DNA of 64,000 bases from an uncultured Trueperaceae bacterium (GCA_963727505.1 CAVSGP010000009.1:64001-128000); one strand, 5' to 3'. Shown: positions 3,938 through 52,007, numbered from the stretch's first letter. Made by a program: numbers and translations. The notes: generated by a model from the letters alone, not told the origin.

Positions 3938-6685
3938 ATGGCCCAGAGCCGATGGAATCGCGGTCCCAGCCGACGCACGGTCCTGAAGGGGATCGTGCTG
4001 GGAACAGGGAGCCTGGTGTTGGGGAGGTTCCGATGGCTCCCGGAGGCGCGCGCCCAGGAGAGCTTGCAGCCGACCTGGGACCCCGCCGATTACGACTACA
4101 CGGCCTGGGAGGACCTTTACCGCAAGCGATGGACGTTCGGAGCGGCTGGGCGTAGTACGCACTCGGTCAACTGCACCGGCAGCTGCAGCTGGAAGGTCCT
4201 GGTGAAGAACGGCGTGGTGTGGCGCGACGAGCAGGCTGCCGACTACCCCGCTATCGGGCCCGATCTGCCCGACTACAACCCGCGCGGCTGCCAGAAGGGG
4301 GCCTGCGCGTCGGACTACCAGTACGGGCGGCAACGCGTGAAGTACCCTCTGAAGCGCGTCGGGGAGCGCGGTGAGGGGCGGTGGCAGCGGCTCAGTTGGG
4401 ACCAGGCGCTCACCGAGATCGCGGACCGCACGCTCGACATCATCCAGCGACACGGGCCCGAGTATCTGCACGCCTTCACGCCGATCCCGGCCATGAGCCC
4501 GGTGTCCTATGCCTCCGGGTCGCGACTGATGAACCTCCTGGGCGGCGTGTCTTTCACCTTCTACGACTGGTACTGCGACCTTCCACCCGGGGAGCCGATC
4601 ACCTGGGGCGTTCAGACGGACAGCGCCGAGTCCGCCGATTGGACGAACAGCCGCTACATCATCGCCTGGGGCTCGAACGTCAACGCCACCCGCATCCCGG
4701 ACGCGCAGATGCTCCAGAAGGCGCGGCTCCGCGGAGGGGCCAAGGTCGTGATGATCGGTACCGAGTACAACCCGACGAGCGTTCATGCCGATCAGTTCGT
4801 GCCGGTACGGCCGGGCAGCGACCTCGCGGTGGCGCTCGCGATGGACCATGTGATCCTGAGCGAGGGGCTCTACGACGTCGCCTACGTCAAGGAACAGACC
4901 GACCTCCCGTTCCTGGTGCGTGAGGACGACGGCCGCTTCCTGCGGGCGGTCGACCTCGATCCGGGCATGGCGAACGCCGACGGCGACGATGGTGGCGGCT
5001 TCTTCCTGTGGGACAGCAAGCGCGGTCTCACGGCCGTACCGAAGGACCGGCTCGCCCTCGGTGATCTCGATCCCGTGCTCGATGCCCACCAGGAAGTGCA
5101 GACGGCCGCGGGGACGGTGCGCGTCACGACGGTCTTCACGTTGTTGCAGCGCGAGCTGGCGGACAAGACGCCGGCGTGGGCGCAGCGGCAGAGCGGGTTG
5201 AACGCCGAGACCATCGCTACGCTCGCCCGCGAGTTCGCAACCACGCGACCCGCGATGATCATCCACGGGAACGGCGTCAACCAGTGGTATCACAACGACC
5301 TCGCGAACCGGGCGATGATCCTGATGGCGGCGCTGACCGGCAACGTGGGCAAGCCCGGGGGCGGGTTCAACCACTACGTGGGGCAGGAGAAGATCTGGCC
5401 GGTGGCGGGTTGGAAGGCGCTGGCTTACCCCGGCCCGCAGCGATTCCAGAACACGACCCTCTGGACCTACTGGCACAGCGAGATGCAGGATGTCGATCCA
5501 CTCTGGCCCGACCTCAAGCCTTACCTGGAGACGGCCGTCGAGAAGGGCTGGATGCCGCTGTGGCCCAACGGGCTCGAGGGCGAGCCCAAGGCGCTGTTCA
5601 CATGGCGGGCCAACTGGTTGAACCAGGCGAAGGGCAACTTGCGTGTTCTGGACAAGCTGATCCCCAAGCTAGAGCTCATCGTGGCGCTCGACTTCCGCAT
5701 GTCCTCCACCGACCTCTACGCCGATTACGTGCTGCCGGCCGCCACCTGGGCCGAGAAGTTCGACCTCAGCTCTACGGACCTCACGTCCTTCCTGATCCCG
5801 TTCACGCCGGTCGTCGCCCCCTTCGCGGAGGCCAAGACCGACTGGCAGGCCTTCCGAGCGCTCGCCGAGACGATCGAACGGCGTGCCAAGGAGCGCGGTG
5901 TTACCGCCTACGACGACATCATCGACGGCGCCACGATTCACCGCGACCTGGCCACGCTTCACGACCAGTTCACCGACGGCGGCAAGCTGCGGCTCGACAA
6001 GGACGCCGCGCAGTCCATCCTGGACGGTTCCGAAGAGACCAGGGGGTACCGTTTCGACGATCTCGTCACCCGCCCCCGCCGTTTCAAGGCTGCGAGCGAG
6101 CACTGGACGAGCGACCTGGAAGAGGGGAAGGCCTACGCGCCGTTCCAGCGCTACGTGAAGGGCAAGCGCCCGTGGCCGACGCTGACCGGACGGCAGCAGT
6201 TCTACATCGACGCTCCCTGGTATCAGGAACTCGGGGTGGCGCTGCCGACCTTCAAACCGCCGCTCGAGCTCAGCAAGCATCCTCTTCGACTCAGCACGCC
6301 CCACTACCGGCACACCATCCATTCGAGCTGGGCGATCGACCTGACGCTCCAGCGCCTGCAGTGGGGCGAGCCGTTCGTGTACCTCAACCCCGACGACGCC
6401 GGGACACGCACCATCGAGGACCATGACTGGGTGAGGGTGTTCAACGACAACGGCTCGACGCGTGTCCGGGCGCGGCTCCATCCCGCTGTGACCCCGGGTC
6501 AGGCGCTGCTCTACCAGGGCTGGGAGATGGTGCAGTTCGAGGGCCGCAGCAACTTCCAGGCGCCGATCTCCATCCACATCAACCCGACCCAGTTGGTGCG
6601 CTACGGCCACCTCCAGTTCAAGCCCAACTACTGGGGTCCGACCGGGGCCAACCGCGACACCCGCGTCGACGTCGAGAAGGCCTGA
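3938..6685 (+). CDS. Tat-exported type II DMSO reductase family molybdopterin subunit (NarG/ClrA/SerA/PcrA group; periplasmic-NarG-like)
   Basis: Tat motif SRRTVLK; FS0 motif HSVNCTGSC...YNPRGCQKG; Asp Mo ligand in FYDWYCDLP; GGAGG RBS before ATG 3938. Confidence 0.92.
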   Translation: MAQSRWNRGPSRRTVLKGIVLGTGSLVLGRFRWLPEARAQESLQPTWDPADYDYTAWEDLYRKRWTFGAAGRSTHSVNCTGSCSWKVLVKNGVVWRDEQAADYPAIGPDLPDYNPRGCQKGACASDYQYGRQRVKYPLKRVGERGEGRWQRLSWDQALTEIADRTLDIIQRHGPEYLHAFTPIPAMSPVSYASGSRLMNLLGGVSFTFYDWYCDLPPGEPITWGVQTDSAESADWTNSRYIIAWGSNVNATRIPDAQMLQKARLRGGAKVVMIGTEYNPTSVHADQFVPVRPGSDLAVALAMDHVILSEGLYDVAYVKEQTDLPFLVREDDGRFLRAVDLDPGMANADGDDGGGFFLWDSKRGLTAVPKDRLALGDLDPVLDAHQEVQTAAGTVRVTTVFTLLQRELADKTPAWAQRQSGLNAETIATLAREFATTRPAMIIHGNGVNQWYHNDLANRAMILMAALTGNVGKPGGGFNHYVGQEKIWPVAGWKALAYPGPQRFQNTTLWTYWHSEMQDVDPLWPDLKPYLETAVEKGWMPLWPNGLEGEPKALFTWRANWLNQAKGNLRVLDKLIPKLELIVALDFRMSSTDLYADYVLPAATWAEKFDLSSTDLTSFLIPFTPVVAPFAEAKTDWQAFRALAETIERRAKERGVTAYDDIIDGATIHRDLATLHDQFTDGGKLRLDKDAAQSILDGSEETRGYRFDDLVTRPRRFKAASEHWTSDLEEGKAYAPFQRYVKGKRPWPTLTGRQQFYIDAPWYQELGVALPTFKPPLELSKHPLRLSTPHYRHTIHSSWAIDLTLQRLQWGEPFVYLNPDDAGTRTIEDHDWVRVFNDNGSTRVRARLHPAVTPGQALLYQGWEMVQFEGRSNFQAPISIHINPTQLVRYGHLQFKPNYWGPTGANRDTRVDVEKA

Positions 6686-43683: not shown

Positions 43684-44478
43684 TCATGGGACCGAAGAAG
43701 AGTCGCCGCCGATGCGCAGGTCAGGTAGGTCGGCGGCCAGCCGACGCGCGTAGGCGGGCTCGTGGTCCCAGCACGAGGCAACCTCCCAGGCGCGTAACGC
43801 CGCTTCCGCGGCCTCCCAGCCCGGGCGCGGGCGGCCGCCGAGCGCGATCGACAACGCCACCTCATCGAGGATCGACGCGTCCACGCGGGCCTCGTCCCAA
43901 TCGACCAGTGCCACGTTGCCTTCCGGCGTCACCAGGATGTTCTCGCGCTGCAGGTCCCCGTGGACGACCGAGCGCGGAGCGCCGGCGAGACGCGCCCAGG
44001 CGGCCCTGCACGCGTCGGCCACGTCGTGGGGCATGCCGTCGAGCTCGATGTCGCCGGCGCTACGACGTTCGACCATGGCGGCGCTCGATGCGAAGCCGGG
44101 GCGCTGGGTCGTCCCTCGGGTGGCGTCGTGGAAACCGCGCAGGAGAGTCCGCAGGCGGGCGAGGCTGCGGGCGTCGGCGGGACGGCCGTCGATGAAGCGT
44201 TCCAAGGTGATTCCGTCCTCGACCAGGTACCCGGCCCGGCTGCGCAGCGGTTCCGGGGTCACCAGCCCGATCTCGCGAGCCTGGACGTGCACCGCCTCGA
44301 GCCAGCTCAGCGCCTCGGCGCTGCGTCGCGTCCCTTTGGCGACGAGCGTCTCGCCGGCACGTTCGACCAGCAGGACGGGGTTGCGGTTCCCTCCCGGCAG
44401 CTCGCGCACGACGCGGAGCTCGCCCCAGGCCGTCGTGCGCTCGAGTCGTTCCTGCAAGCTGCGCGCCGAGAACGCCAC
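43684..44478 (-). CDS. APH/choline-kinase-like phosphotransferase (start uncertain)
   Basis: LPGGNRN, VVHGDLQRENIL and LVDWDE. Confidence 0.85.
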   Translation of the reverse strand: MAFSARSLQERLERTTAWGELRVVRELPGGNRNPVLLVERAGETLVAKGTRRSAEALSWLEAVHVQAREIGLVTPEPLRSRAGYLVEDGITLERFIDGRPADARSLARLRTLLRGFHDATRGTTQRPGFASSAAMVERRSAGDIELDGMPHDVADACRAAWARLAGAPRSVVHGDLQRENILVTPEGNVALVDWDEARVDASILDEVALSIALGGRPRPGWEAAEAALRAWEVASCWDHEPAYARRLAADLPDLRIGGDSSSVP

Positions 44479-44531
44479 GCGTGCCCGGCGTTCCTTCGGT
44501 TCGTCGCCCCCCACCACGTTCCTCGGTCGTC

Positions 44532-45332
44532 CTACTCGTTGGGCGGCGAGCCCGGTGGCACGGGGATTCGGCGCCGATGTTCGATGCGCATCGACGTGCC
44601 GGCGAACGCGGCCGCGTCGGCGTCGAGCGGGATGCTGGTTGACGGCGTGCCGATGCCGAACCCCTGAAGGTGGGTGACGCCCAGGTCCTTGAGTTGCTGA
44701 CGGACGGTCGGATCCTCGACGCCCTCCGCCACCACGATGCCGAAGCGGTCGAGAGCGTCCGCCACCAGATCGATGGCGCGCTGCTGGTAGGTGCCTCCGA
44801 GGAGTGCGGGCAGCAGGCTTCGATCGAGCTTGACGCCGTCGATCGGTGCGCCCTTCCGGAAGCGGTGGTCGAGGTCGTCGAAGGTCACGTCGTCGAGAAG
44901 GACGATCGCGCAATGGTCGCGCACGCCCTCGAGCCCCTGCCAGTAGGCGTCGAGATTGCGGATCTGCTGCTCGGTGAGCTCGACGACGAGGCGCTGCTGC
45001 AGCTCGGGTTTCAGGCTGCGGAGGGCGTGCACGGCAGCTGGTTGCGTCACCTGGGCGGGACTCAGGTTGATGCTCAGGCGCGCCCCGGGCGAAGCGAGCA
45101 GCGCTTCCGCGGCGCGCGCCACGGTGAAGCGCGTGAAGGCCTCGCTGCGGGTGGGGGCAAGCCAGTAGGGCAGGACGTCCAAGGGTCCACGTACCGTGCC
45201 GTCCGGAAGCCGCCAGCGCACCAGCGCCTCGTACCAATGCACGATGCCGGCCGCTGCCGATTCGATCGGCTGGAACTGATAGTGGAGGTCCTGCAGGCGG
45301 GGGTAGGGAACGTGGATGGGGTCGTACTTCAT
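44532..45332 (-). CDS. Stand-alone EAL-domain protein
   Basis: FQPI, YEALVRW, SINLS, VELTE, LDD, VKLDRS, VAEGVE and LQGF; loop 6 is DDVTFD instead of DDFGTG. Confidence 0.88.
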   Translation of the reverse strand: MKYDPIHVPYPRLQDLHYQFQPIESAAAGIVHWYEALVRWRLPDGTVRGPLDVLPYWLAPTRSEAFTRFTVARAAEALLASPGARLSINLSPAQVTQPAAVHALRSLKPELQQRLVVELTEQQIRNLDAYWQGLEGVRDHCAIVLLDDVTFDDLDHRFRKGAPIDGVKLDRSLLPALLGGTYQQRAIDLVADALDRFGIVVAEGVEDPTVRQQLKDLGVTHLQGFGIGTPSTSIPLDADAAAFAGTSMRIEHRRRIPVPPGSPPNE

Positions 45333-45434
45333 GACGGTGGCGATCCCGCCTCCCCCAGGGGGCGACGCGCCCCGCGAGCGAAGGCCGCAGGGCGCGTAAC
45401 AGGTCGATGGGGCGCTACGCCCCGTGCCGCACGC

Positions 45435-45578
45435 TCAGCCCGCGTCGTAGCTTCCGGACTGACTCCCCGAGTCGGCCAGCGTCATGCTCTGGTGAGCGAT
45501 GGTCACGCCCCCGGCGGCCGAGCCGAGCAGGACGAGTGCGAGAATAGTGCTGCGGATGATCTTCTTGAGCGTGGGCAC
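45435..45578 (-). CDS. 47-aa secreted peptide precursor MPTLKKIIRSTILALVLLGSAAGGVTIAHQSMTLADSGSQSGSYDAG (candidate signalling peptide)
   Basis: Translated by hand; perfect AAGGAGG RBS 5 nt before GTG; basic N-region, hydrophobic H-region and short polar tail; own -10 (TAGGCT 45653-45658). Confidence 0.8.
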   Translation of the reverse strand: MPTLKKIIRSTILALVLLGSAAGGVTIAHQSMTLADSGSQSGSYDAG

Positions 45579-45652
45579 CGGGTCCTCCTTGGGTTCCTTC
45601 TTGCTGGTTTCCCCTTTGGGTCTCCTCTGTCTCTGACCCTCTTGCTGCTTGG

Positions 45653-45737
45653 AGCCTACGGGTGGGGGCGCTTCAACCCCGCTTCAACCACGCGGGCTCG
45701 GGCTGAAGCGGGGGTGGAGCGCCCCCCGGCCTACCGT
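45653..45737. promoter_or_regulatory. Mirror-symmetric divergent promoter with 11-bp-period direct repeats
   Basis: Minus strand: GGTTGAAGC-gg-GGTTGAAGC-N11-TAGGCT. Plus strand: GGCTGAAGC-gg-GGGTGGAGC-N11-TACCGT. Confidence 0.75.
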
Positions 45738-45761
45738 GCGGGTCGAGAAGAGGAGGCAGGC

Positions 45762-45953
45762 ATGACGAGAGAAGAAGCCCTCCAACGGCTGGATGGAACG
45801 TGGTCGTTCGATGTCGTCGGGGACCAGGTTCTGATTCGAGAGTTGGGTCTGCTGTCGGCCGTCGACGCGATCCGTCGCGAGCGGTCGGCGGCGGGCCAGC
45901 GCCCGTTCGTCTCCACGGCGTCGTTCGAGGGGGCGGCCGCCTCCGGCGATTGA
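45762..45953 (+). CDS. Small hypothetical protein (63 aa)
   Basis: AGGAGG RBS; MTREEALQRLDGTWSFDVVGDQVLIRELGLL...; lies behind the plus-strand -10. Confidence 0.6.
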   Translation: MTREEALQRLDGTWSFDVVGDQVLIRELGLLSAVDAIRRERSAAGQRPFVSTASFEGAAASGD

Positions 45954-46023
45954 GCGCGACCGTCGACCGCAGCTCCAGGCGTGGTCGCGCGGGAGCTCGC
46001 GCCTATGCCGGTATGCTCATGAT

Positions 46024-48495
46024 GTGTGGCTGAAGCGTCAGCTCGATCGCATCGTCGCAAGCGAGCGGCCGGTGGCGTTGCTCGGCGGCGAGCCGTACGG
46101 CGTTCCCTTCCTCATCGACGCGCTCCGTGAGCGGGAACGGCTAGCCTGGGTCACGTTGTCCCGGCGCGCGCGCGACGACGTGGTGGCACAGGGCAACGCC
46201 CTGGCGAGCGCGTTGAATCAGCAGCTCGGCGAGTCGCTCCTGCCGCACGCCTTGCCCTACCGGGCACACCTGCAGTCGTTGCGCCAGTACCGCCACGATC
46301 TTCAACCGCTGTGGATCGCCGTGTCCGGCGCCGATGTCGCGCCCGCCTTCGCGGGTGAGCTGGTCCAGCTCGCCGACTTCGGCTACCGCGTGCTGCTGGG
46401 GTTCGAGACGGACGTGCCGCCGGAGATGGACGGGCTCGATCGGTGCCTGGTGCTGGGCGTGCCCGAACTCACCGTGACCCGCGAGGACGCAGCGATGATC
46501 GCTCCCGGTGGCCTCTCTGCCGGTGAGCTCGACGCCGTTCAACGCGAGACCGGAGGGCGGTTCACGGACCTCCTGACGGTCACCCACGAACGGGCCCAGC
46601 TCCCACGCTTCCCGATCCCGACGCCGCTCGGGCCGGTGCTGCCGCAGCGCCGAGCCGAAGCCGTCGACGTTCCACTGGCGGTGCTGGGGCTCCAGCGCGA
46701 GGGTCGCCCGGTCGACGCTCTCGAGCTGGCCGTGCGGGCCGCGCCCGAGATGGTGGAGGACCTGCTGCGCACGGCGGGCCCCGCCTACCAGGACGAGGGC
46801 GCGTTGCCCCGACTGCACCTGCTCCTGTCGAGCCTGCCGCAGCCCTACCGGTCTCTCGAGCGCGTGCTGGAGTGGCGTTTCCTGGCCTCCTTCGCGACCA
46901 ACGAGTGGCGCGCCCTGGTCGAGGAGGTCGACGCCCACCTGGAGGCGTTCACGGCGCCCGAGCTTCGTGCACGGCGCGCGGGCACGCTGGCGCGCGAGGC
47001 CGGGTTCCCGCTGGCGGAGGCTGCCATGCGGGCGCGGCGCACGCCGCTGACGCTCTGGCAGTACGGGCGCATGCATCCCGACGCGCAACGGGCGGTGGAG
47101 GTGCTCAAGGAGAGCGTGCGCCTGGCGGAACAGGCCGGCACGCCGTACGAGGTGGCACGCAGCGCCGGCGTCCTGGCCGACCGCCTGGTGCACCTGGGGC
47201 AGTTCCAACGGGGCCGCTCCTGGGCGGAGTACGCCCTGCAGGTGTTCGACCAGAACGGGCTGCGAGACGGCGCACGCCGGCTGACGCTGTTCAACAACCT
47301 GGCCGTGGCCCGCATCCTCAGCGGGGACCTGGCAGGGCTGCGGCGTGGGCTCGAGGACGGGCAGGCCGCCATCGAAGGGAGCCTTCCCGAGCTCGCCGCG
47401 ACCTTCCGCGGCACGCTCGCCTGGTTCGAGCAGGCTAGCGGTCGACCGGAAGAGGCGCTCGAGCTGATGCGGGCCACTTTCGAGGGCAGCCCACGCCGGT
47501 TCCGGACGCGCTTCGGCTACCAGTTCGTGCGCTGCCTCAACGAGTTCGGACGCTACGAGGAGGCGGCCCGGGTCGCGGACGTCGCCGCGGAGCTCAGCGG
47601 CGACGCCTCGGCGCATGCCCGTCAGCTCGGGGCGCTTGCCCAGGGCATGGTGGGCGCGGTCAAGGGCGACGCGACCGCGGTCGACGACCTGCTCGGTGTC
47701 GTGATCGACGGTTCCCTCCCCGCCGAGCAGCGCCTGACGGCGGCGCTCCACGGCCTGCTGGTCGACCCCGCGGGCTGGCACCGCTACCCACCCGACGTCG
47801 TCGAAGTGCTCCGGGGCCTCGACGGCGGCGCGCTGCGCGTGCTCAGCGGGCCCGCGTCGGTCTTCCAGGGCGTCTGGGACACCCTCGTACCGGTGCGCGC
47901 GGAGCTGCGGCTGGAGTTCCTCGGGCGCGTCTCCTGCCGCCTGGGCGGCAAGGAGATCGGGCTGGCGCCGCGCATGGCGGAGACCGCGCTGGCGCTGGCG
48001 CTCCACCCCGACGGGATGACGCGCGAGGAGCTCAACGCCTTCCTGGCGCCCGACGGCACCGCCGGGCTGTCACCGAGCGGTATGCGGGCCACGCTCACCC
48101 GCTTGCGGGCCCTGCTACCGGTCAGCGACGCGCCCTACCGGTTCGCCGTGGCGTACACGGCCGACATCCTGCAGGCGCGGCGTCACCTTCTGGAGAAGCG
48201 CGTTCGCGAGGCTGTCACGCTGCTGCGTGGGCCGCTCCTTCCCGAGAGCGAGGCGCTCGGCGTCGAGGAGCAGCGCTGGATCCTGGAGGAGGAGCTCCGG
48301 CAGGCCGTCCTCGAGGCTGCGGATCCGGACGCCCTCTTCGACCTCGCCGACCGGCTTCAGGACGACGTGCAGCTGTGGGAAGCCGCGGTCGGCGCGCTCC
48401 CGCCGGGCGATCCTCGCAGGGCCCTGGCGCGCGCGCGTCTGCACCGCGGCCAGAGCGAGCAGGTTCCGCCGGCGCGAGGCCCGGCCCAGGCCTGA
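46024..48495 (+). CDS. Large regulator: degenerate MalT-like NTPase N-terminus, TPR-like middle, C-terminal OmpR/SARP-type wHTH with BTAD-like tail
   Basis: VALLGGEPYGVP...LAWVTLS (Walker A lost); helical repeats such as LFNNLAVARILSGD; LRLEFLG...LALHPDGMTREEL...MRATLTRLR; TATGCT 6 nt before GTG. Confidence 0.75.
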   Translation: MWLKRQLDRIVASERPVALLGGEPYGVPFLIDALRERERLAWVTLSRRARDDVVAQGNALASALNQQLGESLLPHALPYRAHLQSLRQYRHDLQPLWIAVSGADVAPAFAGELVQLADFGYRVLLGFETDVPPEMDGLDRCLVLGVPELTVTREDAAMIAPGGLSAGELDAVQRETGGRFTDLLTVTHERAQLPRFPIPTPLGPVLPQRRAEAVDVPLAVLGLQREGRPVDALELAVRAAPEMVEDLLRTAGPAYQDEGALPRLHLLLSSLPQPYRSLERVLEWRFLASFATNEWRALVEEVDAHLEAFTAPELRARRAGTLAREAGFPLAEAAMRARRTPLTLWQYGRMHPDAQRAVEVLKESVRLAEQAGTPYEVARSAGVLADRLVHLGQFQRGRSWAEYALQVFDQNGLRDGARRLTLFNNLAVARILSGDLAGLRRGLEDGQAAIEGSLPELAATFRGTLAWFEQASGRPEEALELMRATFEGSPRRFRTRFGYQFVRCLNEFGRYEEAARVADVAAELSGDASAHARQLGALAQGMVGAVKGDATAVDDLLGVVIDGSLPAEQRLTAALHGLLVDPAGWHRYPPDVVEVLRGLDGGALRVLSGPASVFQGVWDTLVPVRAELRLEFLGRVSCRLGGKEIGLAPRMAETALALALHPDGMTREELNAFLAPDGTAGLSPSGMRATLTRLRALLPVSDAPYRFAVAYTADILQARRHLLEKRVREAVTLLRGPLLPESEALGVEEQRWILEEELRQAVLEAADPDALFDLADRLQDDVQLWEAAVGALPPGDPRRALARARLHRGQSEQVPPARGPAQA

Positions 48496-48640
48496 GGCCT
48501 CGAACGTCCCTCCGCGACGGCCTTCCCCGAAAATGCTGATCGAGCATGGTGGAAAACGATACACTACGCGCCAGGCCCGAAATCCGCCTTGTACGCCCGC
48601 TGCGGGTGTCGGGCGAAGGAAGCTCCCATTCGGAGGTGAC

Positions 48641-50158
48641 ATGAGAAAGTCGCTCTTACTCCTCTTAGCCGGGGTCGCGCTGTCGTTCGGCGCTGCGTTC
48701 GCCGCCAGCGGCACGGTCAGCGTTGCGATGTCCGGGAACGCCATCACACTCAACCCCGGGGACACCAACGGCAACCTCGATTTCTCCATCCAGCGCCCCA
48801 TCTACGAAGGCCTGGTCGGCTTCGACAAGGACGGCAAGCTCGTCCCCGAGCTGGCTACCTCCTGGACGGCCAGCTCGGACGCGACGGTGTTCACGTTCGA
48901 TCTGCGCAAGGGTGTGACCTTCCAGGACGGCACGCCGTTCAACGCCGAGGCCGTAAAGACCTACTTCGACTGGGTCATCGATCCCGCCAACCATTTCGTG
49001 CGCGAGAGCCTGTACAACGTCATCAAGTCGATCGACGTGGTGTCGGAGTACCAGGTCAAGTTCACGCTCTCCAAGCCCTTCGGCGCGATGCTCTTCACAT
49101 TCGCGCACCCTGCCGGGCGCATCGTCAGTCCTGCTGCCATCAAGAAGTACGGCAAGGACGTGGCGAAGCACCCCGTAGGTACCGGTCCCTTCGAGTTCGT
49201 GAGCTGGACGCCGGGCCAGAAGGTGGTCCTGAAGGCCAACCCCAGCTACTGGGGTGACGCGCCGCAGGTCGCCAACCTGCAGTTCCTGTTCGTGCCCAAC
49301 GCCGCGACGCGCGTGGCTATGCTGCAGAGCGGCGAGGCGCAGTTCATCGAGGACCTCCCGCCGCAGCTCGTCGACCCCATCAAGGCCGACAGCAACCTGA
49401 CGGTCAGCGCCCAGCCGAGCATCTACGTGCGCTACATGGCGATGAACACGCAGGCCAAGCCGTTCAACGATCAGCGCGTGCGTCAGGCGCTGAACTACGC
49501 GGTGGACAAGAAGACCATCGTCGACGTCATCACCAAGGGCTACGGCACCGCGTTGACGGCTCCGATCGCCGAGCAGGTGACGGGCTACGCCAAGCAGACG
49601 CCGTACGCCTACAATCCCGAGAAGGCCAAGCAGCTGCTGGCCGAGGCCGGCTATCCCAACGGCTTCACCTTCACCATCGACTCGCTCAACAGCACCGGCT
49701 ACCAGCAGATCGATCAGGTGCTGCAGCAGATGTTCGCGAAGGTGGGCGTGACCGCCAAGATCAACCCGATGGAGAGCGGCACGTTCTCCAGCACGGTGTT
49801 CGCGCCGTTCGACAAGACCACCCTCCAGGCAGTCGTCATCGGCTGGTCCCCGTCGACCGGTGACGCCGACTGGGGCCTGCGCCCGCTGTTCGACAAGGCC
49901 TCCTGGCCGCCCGATCTGTACAACCTGGCGTTCTACGACAACCCCAACGTCAACAAGCTGATCGCCGACGGCCTCAGCACGGCCAATCAGGACATCCGCA
50001 ACCAGGCCTATGCCTCCGCCGAGAAGACCATCTGGAACGATGCTCCCTGGGTCTTCCTGTACAGCCCCTACAACATCGCGGGTATCTCCGCGAAGTTGAA
50101 CGGCGTCTTCTACATGCCCGACGGCACGGTGGACGCCCGGGCGGCCAGCCTGCAGTAA
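48641..50158 (+). CDS. Peptide/glutathione ABC substrate-binding protein (GsiB/DppA-like)
   Basis: Sec signal; LRKGVTFQDGTPFNA, PVGTGPF and GWSPSTGDADW; GGAGG RBS. Confidence 0.93.
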   Translation: MRKSLLLLLAGVALSFGAAFAASGTVSVAMSGNAITLNPGDTNGNLDFSIQRPIYEGLVGFDKDGKLVPELATSWTASSDATVFTFDLRKGVTFQDGTPFNAEAVKTYFDWVIDPANHFVRESLYNVIKSIDVVSEYQVKFTLSKPFGAMLFTFAHPAGRIVSPAAIKKYGKDVAKHPVGTGPFEFVSWTPGQKVVLKANPSYWGDAPQVANLQFLFVPNAATRVAMLQSGEAQFIEDLPPQLVDPIKADSNLTVSAQPSIYVRYMAMNTQAKPFNDQRVRQALNYAVDKKTIVDVITKGYGTALTAPIAEQVTGYAKQTPYAYNPEKAKQLLAEAGYPNGFTFTIDSLNSTGYQQIDQVLQQMFAKVGVTAKINPMESGTFSSTVFAPFDKTTLQAVVIGWSPSTGDADWGLRPLFDKASWPPDLYNLAFYDNPNVNKLIADGLSTANQDIRNQAYASAEKTIWNDAPWVFLYSPYNIAGISAKLNGVFYMPDGTVDARAASLQ

Positions 50159-50174
50159 GTTCCTGACGTGCGGA

Positions 50175-50202
50175 GAGCCGGCCCGCTACGGCTGGCCGGC
50201 TC
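50175..50202 (+). terminator. Intercistronic hairpin after the SBP gene
   Basis: GAGCCGGCC-N10-GGCCGGCTC. Confidence 0.5.
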
Positions 50203-50224
50203 CCGCTCGTTGACCTTATTCATC

Positions 50225-51145
50225 ATGTGGCGCTATCTGATCCGTCGACTGCTCGAGCTCATCCCGACGCTGATCGGTGTCTCGATCGCGGTCTTTCTCT
50301 TCATCCATGCCATCCCAGGTGACCCTGCCCGCCTGGCGGCTGGACAGGATGCCTCGCTCGCCGACGTCGAGGCGATGCGCGTGCGCCTGGGACTCAACCA
50401 CAGCCTGCCGGTCCAGTACCTTTACTTCCTCCGGAATGCCGCCCACGGCGATTTCGGGCTCTCCTTTCGCCAGCAGGTGCCGGTGCTTCAGGTGGTGCGC
50501 GAGCACTTCATGCCCACCCTTCTGCTTTCGACGAGCGCCATCGTCATCGCGTTCGTCTTCGGCTTGTTGTCGGGGGTGATGGCGGCGACGCGCCGCAACT
50601 CCTGGTTCGACCTGGTGATCACGGGGCTCTCCGCCACCGGCATCAGCATCCCATCGTTCTTCCTCGGGATCCTGCTCATCTATCTGTTCGCCGTCGATCT
50701 TCACTGGTTCCCGGTCACCGGGAGCGTGAGCCTGCGCGGGCTCGTGCTGCCCTCGGTGAGCCTTGCTCTGGCGCCGCTCGCCACCATCGCGCGCTTCGTG
50801 CGCTCGAGCTTCCTGGAGGTCTCGGGCGAGGACTTCGTGCGCACGGCCAGTGCCAAGGGGCTCGGCTATGCCGCCGTCACCTACAAGCACGCGCTGCGTA
50901 ACGCCCTGATCCCCGTGGTGACCATGACCGGGCTCCAGTTCGGCTTCCTGCTCGGCGGGGCGGTCGTCATCGAGACGGTGTTCAACTTCACGGGCCTGGG
51001 CTGGCTGCTGATCCAGTCGATCGGCTTTCGCGACTACGCCGTGCTCCAGGTCCTGCTGCTGCTCTTCGCGTTGGAGTTCATGCTGGTGAACCTGCTGGTT
51101 GACGTCACCTATGGCGCACTGGACCCGAGGATCCGCTATGACTAG
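50225..51145 (+). CDS. Peptide ABC permease (GsiC/DppB-like)
   Basis: IPGDPA, FVRTASAKG and KHALRNALIP. Confidence 0.93.
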   Translation: MWRYLIRRLLELIPTLIGVSIAVFLFIHAIPGDPARLAAGQDASLADVEAMRVRLGLNHSLPVQYLYFLRNAAHGDFGLSFRQQVPVLQVVREHFMPTLLLSTSAIVIAFVFGLLSGVMAATRRNSWFDLVITGLSATGISIPSFFLGILLIYLFAVDLHWFPVTGSVSLRGLVLPSVSLALAPLATIARFVRSSFLEVSGEDFVRTASAKGLGYAAVTYKHALRNALIPVVTMTGLQFGFLLGGAVVIETVFNFTGLGWLLIQSIGFRDYAVLQVLLLLFALEFMLVNLLVDVTYGALDPRIRYD

Positions 51146-52007
51146 CGCAGCGTCCGCCGCTCCCGCCCGCGAGAGCCGGGGCCGCGACCTGTGGCGGCGC
51201 TTCCGGCGCCATCGCAGCGGCATGGCGGGCCTCGCGCTGACGGCCGTGTTCGTGCTGATGGCGATCTTCGGCCACCTTCTGGCGCCCTACGACCCGGCCC
51301 AGGCCGACTACCTGCACCTCAACGCTCCGCTCTCGGCTACGCACTGGCTGGGCACCGACAACTACGGCCGCGATATCTTCAGCCGGACGCTGGTCGGGGC
51401 ACGCTACTCGCTCAGCATCGGCGTCCTGGCGACGGCTTTCAGCGCGCTGATCGGCAGCCTGTGGGGGCTGCTCGCCGGCTACCTGAGTGGCTGGTTCGAT
51501 ACCCTCTCGGGGCGTGTCATCGACATCATGCTGGCCTTCCCGGGCCTGCTCCTGGCGATCGGCATCATCGCGATCGCCGGGCCCGGTTTTCGCAACGTCA
51601 TCCTCGCCACGACCATCTTCGGCATCCCGATCTTCGCGCGGCTGGTCCGCGGGTCGGCGCTGGCGCTCAAGGAGCGCGCCTACGTGGAAGCGAGCCAGGC
51701 GCTGGCGGCCAGCTCCGCGCGCATCATGTTCCGGCACGTGCTGCCCAACATCTTGGCACCGATCCTGGTGTACATCACGTTGCGCGTCGGCACGGTGATC
51801 CTCATCGCGGCGTCGCTGTCGTTCCTGGGTCTCGGGGTCCAACCGCCGACGCCCGAGTGGGGCGCCATGCTCAGCGAAGCTCAGCTCTACCTGGCCATCG
51901 ATCCCATCATGGCGATCGCGCCCGGCGTGGCGATCAGTCTCGCCGTCCTGGGCTTCAATCTGCTGGGCGACGGTCTGCGCGACGTGCTCGATCCGCGCAT
52001 CCGCTGA
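51138..52007 (+). CDS. Peptide ABC permease (GsiD/DppC-like)
   Basis: HWLGTDNYGRD, RHVLPN and LSFLGLGVQPPTPEWG. Confidence 0.93.
   Translation: MTSAASAAPARESRGRDLWRRFRRHRSGMAGLALTAVFVLMAIFGHLLAPYDPAQADYLHLNAPLSATHWLGTDNYGRDIFSRTLVGARYSLSIGVLATAFSALIGSLWGLLAGYLSGWFDTLSGRVIDIMLAFPGLLLAIGIIAIAGPGFRNVILATTIFGIPIFARLVRGSALALKERAYVEASQALAASSARIMFRHVLPNILAPILVYITLRVGTVILIAASLSFLGLGVQPPTPEWGAMLSEAQLYLAIDPIMAIAPGVAISLAVLGFNLLGDGLRDVLDPRIR

Follow-up and report, generated by a model that had tools for sequence, protein, structure and literature searches.

The window analysed here, a stretch of 64,000 nucleotides from an uncultured Trueperaceae bacterium (GCA_963727505.1, CAVSGP010000009.1:64001-128000), carries between positions 44,532 and 52,007 a group of genes whose core, in our judgement, reasonably probably forms a self-contained export/re-import peptide circuit with parts that are not homologous to the RRNPPA systems of Firmicutes. 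The conserved core consists of two gene pairs on opposite strands. On the minus strand s47, a candidate pre-propeptide gene, is followed by a gene for a stand-alone EAL protein; on the plus strand the small gene s63 is followed by the gene of an 823-aa regulator with a predicted TPR-like sensor and a SARP-type module. We base this view mainly on the conservation of s47 beside the regulator, the repetition of its C-terminal cassette in relatives, a predicted peptide-regulator complex and the repeats found over both promoters.

An earlier reading, made from the sequence alone, had proposed a quorum-sensing module of a secreted micropeptide, a TPR/winged-helix receptor, an EAL output and a peptide importer in a probable Deinococcota host. 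All the genes it named are present where it had placed them, and every part of its inference that could be tested in silico was supported.

Results

Conservation of the core genes

The window has 70% G+C and is part of contig C9 of a 3.26-Mb genome. A word-indexed search returned 147 homologues of the regulator. All named ones come from Trueperaceae or Deinococcales metagenome-assembled genomes, which confirms a Deinococcota host of the family Trueperaceae. A scan of species-representative genomes gave 37 regulator loci with flanks, 6 of which duplicate genus loci. Orthologues with 70-94% identity were present in 9/9 other genomes of the genus. Full-length relatives (E ≤ 1e-15) were found in 194 of the 364 Deinococcota genomes searched, a tally that includes one genome flagged as unpublished (G334), on which nothing else rests. 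By family, they occurred in 106/127 (f1), 35/125 (f2), 0/19 (f3), 8/23 (f4) and 44/68 (f5) genomes.

Homology of s47 and s63 was established by iterated profile searches of six-frame translations. With the threshold E ≤ 1e-3, an s47 homologue stood beside the regulator in 35 of the 37 non-duplicate related loci with upstream DNA, and the scan for a secreted small open reading frame (ORF) near regulator homologues, suggested earlier, was therefore positive. In one of the two exceptions (L056) the match had an E of 0.013 and the same architecture, and in the other (L051) the DNA is N-masked. Homologues of s63 were found in 37 of the 38 loci with the relevant DNA, and the EAL gene followed s47 in all 36 loci that reach far enough. 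We therefore consider EAL, s47, s63 and the regulator to be the core. The gene order is also retained in distant type-A loci (L085-L089, L095 and L096; 37-43% regulator identity), whose peptides end in D-V-G or D-P-G. Runs of N cover the peptide-gene region in L051 (~4700-4860) and L053 (~4400-4600), where the last 8-12 residues can still be read (...QPNEWDVG).

The propeptide gene s47 and its repeated cassette

The 47-aa s47 is located at 45435-45578 on the minus strand and is identified by codon statistics, homology and a signal rule. Its Shine-Dalgarno sequence, AAGGAGGA, can be read at 45583-45590 (minus strand), with GGAGG 5 nt before the GTG start. Using a codon model that had been trained on long ORFs of this genome, we obtained a score of 0.48 per codon. 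This score falls at about the 99th percentile in the distribution of off-frame windows and at about the 25th in that of true genes. The G+C content at third codon positions (GC3) was 0.85. The ORFs antisense to s47 and s63 had negative or near-zero codon scores. The ORF had been called unannotated, which does not hold everywhere for its family: the s47 family has 76 public protein clusters, labelled 'hypothetical' or 'uncharacterized membrane protein'.

The product starts with a basic n-region (LKK) and a hydrophobic h-region, followed by T-I-A, with small residues at -3 and -1, and by HQSMTLA-DSGSQSGSYDAG. A crude signal-peptide rule was passed by 29/29 aligned single-copy family members and by 14 of the 3255 genome ORFs of 40-60 aa (0.4%). 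Judged by these features, s47 probably carries a Sec-type signal peptide with a putative cleavage site after T-I-A. The tail ends in an invariant D-x-G directly before the stop, where D45 and G47 are the invariant residues. In five more distant genomes the s47 profile gave only noise (E > 0.08), therefore the D-x-G peptide family does not extend to them.

The C-terminal cassette of 12-17 residues is tandemly repeated 2-4 times in several relatives, and every copy ends in D-x-G. Four copies are present in L060 (..ADTSGQPNEYDVG), L087 (AGSGSVVIPDVG) and L042 (QTSNQPGEYDVG, a 12-mer without spacer), three in L049 and the public homologue P0132, and two in L044 and L034. Repeated cassettes were found in 7 of the 16 public homologues read, namely P0132 and six 69-aa forms with two copies each. 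The public homologue P0177 (69 aa) has two unlike cassettes, ...GDIDVG and ...GDPDAG, and looks like a diverging pheromone duplicate.

The repetition of the cassette in relatives suggests that the s47 product is a processed propeptide, and the multi-copy and diverged cassettes imply that what acts is a released peptide some 12 residues long. The proposal of a secreted, processed peptide is thus consistent with the conservation of the gene, its signal-like N-terminus and the tandem cassettes of many relatives. The 12-mer which had been guessed as the mature form, DSGSQSGSYDAG, fits the 12-residue spacer-free repeat unit of L042. Multi-copy, diverged cassettes are a feature of Rap-Phr propeptides as well, according to PMC11343458 and PMC9765709.

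We also considered that s47 is a chance ORF in G+C-rich DNA, the region being no more than an extended regulatory leader of the EAL gene. In favour of this are the small size of the ORF, its GTG start and the ratio of nonsynonymous to synonymous substitution rates (dN/dS), which within the genus is 0.19-1.02 and mostly 0.4-0.9 and comes near 1 in some genus pairs. However, 35/37 loci, down to about 40% regulator identity, preserve the reading frame, the start, the signal-like N-terminus and the D-x-G at the stop, and the GC3 of 0.85, the in-frame tandem duplications and the 76 public clusters all speak for a real gene. We find a chance ORF hardly credible.

Predicted architecture of the regulator

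The regulator is encoded at 46024-48495 on the plus strand. Its AlphaFold2 model, built from a 45-sequence alignment, has three parts, with a predicted local distance difference test (pLDDT) of 91.7 and a predicted TM-score (pTM) of 0.90. Residues 1-210 (46024-46653, plus strand) are modelled as a STAND-type alpha/beta domain with a degenerate P-loop, residues 216-621 (46669-47886, plus strand) as a helical TPR-like sensor, and residues 622-813 (47887-48462, plus strand) as a SARP module composed of an OmpR-type winged helix and a BTA helical domain. An intact Walker A motif reads GxxxxGK[ST]. In the regulator this position reads GGEPYGVP, where V and P replace K and S/T, while all 45 sequences compared share G21, G26 and P28.

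The best whole-chain fold match was the STAND+TPR protein 6mfv_A (target-normalised TM 0.49, 665 alignment columns), and MalT (8bob_C) was likewise among the fold matches listed. The C-terminal 203 residues, modelled alone, reached a pLDDT of 90.3. Foldseek gave just 6 matches with E ≤ 1e-3 for this model and all were AfsR (8k60, 8hvr) or EmbR (2ff4, 2fez), with TM 0.53-0.68 overall and 0.67-0.68 for AfsR in transcription initiation complexes. The SARP assignment is made by fold only, since Pfam Trans_reg_C and BTAD did not match. A C-terminal profile gave only E 0.1-1 matches among PDB sequences, to the winged helices of ToxR, CadC and OmpR.

We rejected an assignment to a family by sequence, as Pfam, NCBIfam and phmmer against the PDB returned nothing above threshold; generic TPR matches in the Pfam/NCBIfam scans stayed below it (TPR_19, 19-22 bits with a cut-off of 25). 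PF27103 is precomputed on most of the regulator homologues. According to the models, the regulator has the three domain types of AfsR, permuted to NOD-TPR-SARP and with a dead nucleotide site. The AlphaFold2 model, the 6mfv fold match and the SARP fold match agree with the degenerate NTPase, TPR-like repeats and winged helix-turn-helix (HTH) recognised by the sequence-only reading.

The same holds for the view that the architecture is not of the RRNPPA type. The Pfam and NCBIfam scans gave no profile match to that family (Rap, Rgg, NprR, PlcR, PrgX, AimR), and the 38 matches that Foldseek listed up to rank 50 include no RRNPPA chain. The N-terminus is alpha/beta and STAND-like, not an XRE-type HTH or a Rap 3-helix bundle, and the SARP winged helix is C-terminal.

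Predicted docking of the peptide C-terminus

The complex of regulator residues 1-625 with s47 residues 18-47 was predicted with both partners supplied as alignments. The score was 0.76 (0.79, 0.76 and 0.76 in the runs), compared with 0.01 for the best of 3 controls. Among solved complexes 116 of 157 came up to a mark of 0.76, and among mismatched pairs 2 of 215 did so; these counts are only a rough guide because our own alignments were supplied. The runs shared at least 40% of contacts, and the pLDDT of the partner was at least 38. On the peptide side, the confident contacts involved only residues 42-47 (GSYDAG). The predicted pocket is formed by regulator residues 286-287, 290, 295, 317-318, 320-324, 342, 345-346, 349, 379 and 456. 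Across 45 homologues, 7 of these 17 positions never vary (R317, R318, G320, W345, Q346, R349 and R379), as opposed to 56 of the 608 elsewhere in residues 1-625 (Fisher p 6.6e-4). Thus, the invariant acidic end of the peptide with its free carboxylate would meet the most conserved, arginine-rich patch of the sensor. The modelling which the sequence-only reading had suggested supports binding to the TPR region: the peptide C-terminus is predicted to dock in the first TPR repeats.

Co-variation of peptide and TPR region was suggestive, though not significant. Position -2 of the peptide tracks residue 321, which is one of the predicted contacts: T321 was found in 16 of the 18 loci with the peptide end D-A-G and in 1 of the 15 with D-V-G. 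The regulator tree holds only 3 independent pairs of this kind (sign test p 0.25).

Two other roles of the peptide have to be weighed here. It may be an exported or membrane-anchored envelope peptide, or a product like a bacteriocin or a ribosomally synthesised and post-translationally modified peptide (RiPP), that is never re-imported. The regulator would then sense something else, e.g. c-di-GMP (cyclic di-GMP), s63 or a metabolite, and would do no more than control expression of the peptide. The module lacks a conserved importer, protease or modifying enzyme, and s63 is a candidate for a conserved cytoplasmic partner. Stand-alone EAL proteins can be protein-binding 'trigger' enzymes (PdeR-MlrA), which also counts in its favour. 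However, the complex prediction is specific with regard to the controls and places the invariant D-x-G end at invariant arginines. A membrane anchor would hardly account for tandem cassettes with D-x-G at the end of each, and the cysteines or modification enzymes expected of a RiPP are missing. We consider a peptide that stays outside unlikely.

The second is autocrine or secretion-stress sensing, in which the C-terminus of an unexported or re-captured precursor reports to the regulator, and the circuit responds to the cell's own state of secretion or processing instead of to population density. Before processing, only the last cassette has a free D-x-G end, and the predicted contacts are indeed the last six residues. 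The Deinococcota envelope is complex and multilayered and might retain peptides. The multi-copy precursors and the unlike cassettes of P0177 argue instead that released peptides are the selected product, which makes sensing of the precursor quite improbable. A released and re-imported peptide is the reading we retain below.

Repeats over the two divergent promoters

The 183-bp spacer between s47 and s63 contains a putative operator that was absent from the sequence-only reading. Pair 1 (45669-45686, minus strand) reads TGAAGCG-N4-TGAAGCG, or CGCTTCA-N4-CGCTTCA on the plus strand, and covers the -35 region of the s47-EAL promoter. Pair 2 (45704-45721, plus strand) reads TGAAGCG-N4-TGGAGCG and covers the -35 region of the s63-regulator promoter. 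A -10-like hexamer follows each pair: TAGGCT (45653-45658, minus strand) exactly 10 nt downstream of the proximal repeat, and TACCGT (45732-45737, plus strand) 10 nt after pair 2. Read toward its own gene, each promoter has the form TGAAGCG-N4-TGAAGCG-N10-TAnnnT. The two pairs are mutually inverted and the repeat period is 11 bp.

The left pair was perfect in 28 and had at most 2 mismatches in 33 of the 35 non-duplicate loci, and the right pair had at most 2 mismatches in 29 of them. In shuffled spacers the 1st percentile of the best match was 4 mismatches. The TAnnnT hexamer stood exactly at +10 in at least 31/35 (left) and at least 29/35 (right) loci. L035 and L054 were the exceptions. The L035 spacer has a variant operator based on CTGAAA/TTTCAG repeats instead of TGAAGCG, a possible switch of DNA specificity.

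In the whole 3.26-Mb genome these two were the only sites with at most 1 mismatch. Among the 33 genome sites with at most 2 mismatches, none besides these two had the hexamer at +10. From this survey the regulon appears confined to the module's own two promoters. In a sister clade described below, the same 11-bp-period layout is present with another half-site, GTTGC-N6-GTTRC, in 6/6 loci. Direct repeats 11 or 22 bp apart, near the -10 and overlapping the -35, characterise SARP-type sites, and repeats of this kind are present and conserved here. Consensus promoter and terminator scans found none around the module or between the regulator and the downstream solute-binding protein (SBP) gene, but such scans are uninformative in 70% G+C DNA.

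The s47 leader (45583-45650) carries CT-rich direct repeats in the genus, TCCTCCTTGGGTTCCTTCT / TCCCCTTTGGGTCTCCTCT and CCTTCTTGCTGGTT / CCCTCTTGCTGCTT, and is about 40 nt longer than in other genera.

The operator, SARP and binding evidence also fits a circuit of opposite sign. In such an AimR-like design the peptide-free regulator would activate and the imported peptide would release it from DNA, so that c-di-GMP hydrolysis and peptide synthesis are off at high density. The degenerate P-loop favours this design in so far as the order known for MalT and AfsR, ligand and then ATP binding, cannot apply unchanged, and PMC13220667 describes an arbitrium peptide that removes its receptor from DNA. 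On the other side, the peptide gene sits under one of the two regulated promoters, where autoinduction is the usual design, and in AfsR the NOD and TPR parts inhibit the SARP domain until the signal arrives (PMC10936776). We regard the opposite sign as rather unlikely, and we continue with activation by the peptide.

The phosphodiesterase gene as proposed output

The EAL gene (44532-45332, minus strand; 266 aa; Pfam EAL E 2.8e-34) lies directly downstream of s47 on the same strand. Its product aligns to the active EAL domain of PA3825. E35, R39, N89, E118, E121, D147, D148, K168, D170, E203, Q223 and G224 are invariant in 41/41 orthologues, and E206 is kept in 40/41, with one conservative E-to-D change. 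The canonical loop 6 of EAL domains is DFG[TA]GYSS. Here loop 6 is non-canonical (DDVTFDDLDHRF, pattern DD[VIL]T..DL..R) and variable among orthologues. Judging from these residues, we propose that the protein is a c-di-GMP phosphodiesterase and the output of the circuit. The genome encodes 21 GGDEF and 10 EAL domains, and the EAL of the module is the only one not beside a GGDEF.

In the sister clade (L069-L071 and L090-L093; 38-41% regulator identity) the module is rearranged. A different signal-peptide ORF of 38-43 aa, with a basic last residue, is divergent from the s63 homologue, and the regulator is convergent. In place of the EAL gene, a gene for an HD-GYP phosphodiesterase follows the peptide gene (L070:1320-2487, minus strand). 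The HD-GYP gene is intact in L070 (Pfam HD_5 E 2e-36, HHERLDGSGYP), L090, L092 and L093 and fragmentary in L071; it was not found at L069 and L091. The exchange of the EAL protein for a non-homologous phosphodiesterase argues that c-di-GMP hydrolysis is the selected output. With the EAL neighbour in 36/36 loci and the HD-GYP replacement, the suggested c-di-GMP output gained support.

The 102-nt spacer between s47 and the EAL gene (45333-45434, minus strand) contains G+C-rich hairpins, the inverted repeats I2 and I4. The RNA fold of 45333-45437 has -58.7 kcal/mol over 105 nt, and the spacer has no T-run terminator. Its sequence suggests that it is possibly a processing, stabilising or attenuating element, and the hairpins might set the expression ratio of peptide to EAL protein.

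The sequencing runs with the locus are metagenomes, represented as contigs, with one RNA-library run at a small share (0.06). A metatranscriptome contig of a relative, 87% identical, spans 45271-45468, from the EAL 5' end to the s47 3' end. The RNA-library contigs cover only parts of the EAL gene and the EAL-s47 junction, and the uncovered rest is uninformative. This is weakly compatible with co-transcription of EAL and s47 in the relative, as DNA carry-over is possible.

An APH-type phosphotransferase-family gene (43684-44700, minus strand) lies downstream of the EAL gene, and its longest ORF overlaps the EAL 3' end. Homologues occupy that position in 3 genus loci (L024, L026 and L027).

The small gene s63

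The gene s63 (45762-45953, plus strand) was not listed by the sequence-only reading. It encodes 63 aa, is probably cytoplasmic and has GGAGG 5 nt before its ATG. It heads the transcription unit of the regulator, lies 70 nt before the regulator gene and is the divergent partner of s47. The peptide and regulator genes had been described as divergent; they do lie on opposite strands, but they are not directly divergent, as the conserved s63 sits between them.

About 40 N-terminal residues of s63 are conserved and the tail is variable. Its codon score is 0.18, its GC3 0.78 and its dN/dS within the genus 0.18-0.61. The gene is retained in the rearranged sister clade too. We found no match in Pfam, NCBIfam or the ESM Atlas, and public records call it 'hypothetical'. 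It is possibly a feedback modulator or a second output.

Transporter genes, paralogues and distant homologues

Downstream of the regulator, at 48641-52007 (plus strand), there are genes for a GsiB/Dpp-like family-5 SBP (SBP_bac_5 E 6e-104) and two permeases. The best NCBIfam match of the SBP was GsiB with 424.6 bits, below the cut-off of 594. The genes had been read as a peptide ABC importer. The SBP and both permeases are there, but no ATPase gene adjoins them. The SBP follows the regulator in 10/10 genus loci and directly in no locus outside the genus; in L051 and L060, both outside the genus, an SBP homologue lies about 3 kb further on. No operator was found upstream of the transporter genes. 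On account of this synteny and the absent operator we rejected the importer as a part of the module, to which the sequence-only reading had assigned it. It is still a possible import route for the peptide.

A paralogue of the regulator with about 30% identity is present in most of the 9 other genus genomes. In this genome (G000:C4:555684-558120; L002 and L003) it is found as two separate open frames, which match query residues 2-444 and 463-809. Elsewhere in the genus it is a single ORF of 823-851 aa, and it may be frameshifted here. At L020, the only paralogue locus whose ORFs were read, it adjoins a LuxR-type HTH gene and an Opp-permease gene. The s47, s63 and EAL queries had no match at the ~30% paralogue loci.

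In other Deinococcota families, signal-peptide-like ORFs were observed at the 3' ends of two distant regulator homologues (L063:2801-2977 and L065:2554-2706, both plus strand). These candidates have 58 and 50 aa and a GC3 of 0.74-0.86.

Discussion

The circuit that we propose would work as follows. Sec would export the 47-aa product, and its signal peptide would be removed, probably after T-I-A, as the sequence features suggest. Extracellular proteolysis would then free a peptide of about 12 residues with a D-x-G end and a free carboxylate, here approximately DSGSQSGSYDAG, for which the tandem cassettes argue. The peptide would re-enter via an oligopeptide permease, the adjacent GsiB-like system being one candidate among others. 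Inside the cell, its C-terminus is predicted to dock in the invariant arginine-rich pocket of the first TPR repeats of the regulator. The SARP domain would bind as a side-by-side dimer to the two 11-bp direct repeats (TGAAGCG-N4) which, as seen in the spacer, replace the -35. By analogy with MalT and AfsR, the ligand would most likely relieve autoinhibition and both promoters would be activated. Promoter 1 would give more propeptide (autoinduction) and the EAL phosphodiesterase, which would lower c-di-GMP; promoter 2 would give s63 and the regulator itself. We infer that the circuit has a function at the level of the population.

Several points weigh against this proposal. The modelled 30-residue piece of s47 kept part of the signal peptide, and the pLDDT of the partner was about 39. 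The high score of the complex may partly reflect a likeness to solved TPR-peptide complexes, e.g. those of RRNPPA receptors. The Hsp70/90 clamp for the EEVD end is another solved complex of this type. The co-variation comes down to 3 independent pairs, which all point the same way. Conservation of the module does not extend to any importer, and no processing protease was identified. Pfam Trans_reg_C and BTAD miss the C-terminal domain even at E ≤ 10. The single contig described above is the sole RNA evidence and stems from a relative. Lastly, purifying selection on the whole s47 ORF is weak because dN/dS is high, which weakens the coding argument; weak purifying selection is usual for pheromone precursors.

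Compared with known systems, the module would work like the RRNPPA systems but its regulator does not belong to that family by profile or fold; the SARP fold and site logic are there, in permuted order. The likeness to Rap-Phr, PlcR-PapR, NprR-NprX and AimR-AimP is in the small ORF beside the receptor gene, the KK Sec-type signal and the C-terminal mature peptide, as PMC9765709 describes them. It extends to the duplicated cassettes of some precursors, the cytoplasmic TPR receptor and the proposed control of the peptide gene by the receptor (PMC9765709 and PMC11343458). Unlike in those systems, the receptor here is an 823-aa STAND NOD + TPR + SARP protein, the host is a Deinococcota bacterium, s63 is present and the proposed output is a c-di-GMP phosphodiesterase. 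The peptide is also longer (~12 aa) and has the invariant D-x-G end.

With the large SARPs, such as S. coelicolor AfsR (SARP-NOD-arm-TPR), the regulator shares the three domain types and the SARP fold (TM 0.67-0.68). Both have two 11-bp direct repeats over the -35 at a fixed short distance to the -10 (PMC10936776), but this distance is 10 nt here and 8 bp for AfsR (PMC10936776). In addition, the SARP module is C-terminal here (622-813 of 823), the regulon apparently comprises the module's own two promoters and a candidate ligand is encoded next door. Since the Walker A motif is degenerate, the regulator would lack the ATP switch of AfsR. No ligand is known for the AfsR TPR sensor, and PMC10936776 poses this as an open question.

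MalT and other STAND activators (6mfv, 8bob) similarly combine a NOD with a helical repeat sensor behind it, to which the inducer binds. However, the effector domain here is SARP and not a LuxR-type HTH, the P-loop is without Lys and Ser/Thr, and a peptide is proposed as the inducer. In other bacteria, too, e.g. in Vibrio, quorum sensing feeds into c-di-GMP degradation. The difference is that the phosphodiesterase gene here would be co-transcribed with the signal precursor and is swapped for HD-GYP in the sister clade.

Signalling by imported pheromones through cytoplasmic TPR receptors is seen as particular to Bacillota and the mobile elements of these bacteria (PMC9765709, PMC11343458). In the literature searched, with bioRxiv supplements and subscription journals outside the search, we found no such system in Deinococcota and no SARP/STAND regulator with a peptide ligand. 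That no characterised system resembles this one, as had been stated before, thus holds for this literature. A wider reading, which we put forward tentatively, is that cytoplasmic receptors for peptide pheromones evolved independently a second time, in the form of the Deinococcota STAND-TPR-SARP proteins. Each of these would have its own secreted, often multi-copy propeptide and its own operator of 11-bp repeats, and the class would diversify into 'pherotypes'. As part of this tentative reading, two pherotypes may be distinguished, D-x-G-ended peptides with EAL and basic-ended peptides with HD-GYP.

Being compact, the module is easy to test: it comprises one operator motif, two promoters and a 12-mer ligand. 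It might also find use as an orthogonal switch that is induced by a peptide. If our interpretation is true, the export/re-import design arose on at least two occasions, each time with an unrelated receptor. The TPR sensor of a SARP/AfsR-like regulator would then have its first class of ligands, and there would be a tractable route to what the TPR sensors of large SARPs such as AfsR sense. Among peptide quorum-sensing families outside Bacillota, this one would be the first with a direct connection to c-di-GMP degradation. One short operon would then link cell-to-cell signalling to c-di-GMP in these bacteria, and hence probably to decisions on biofilm or motility.

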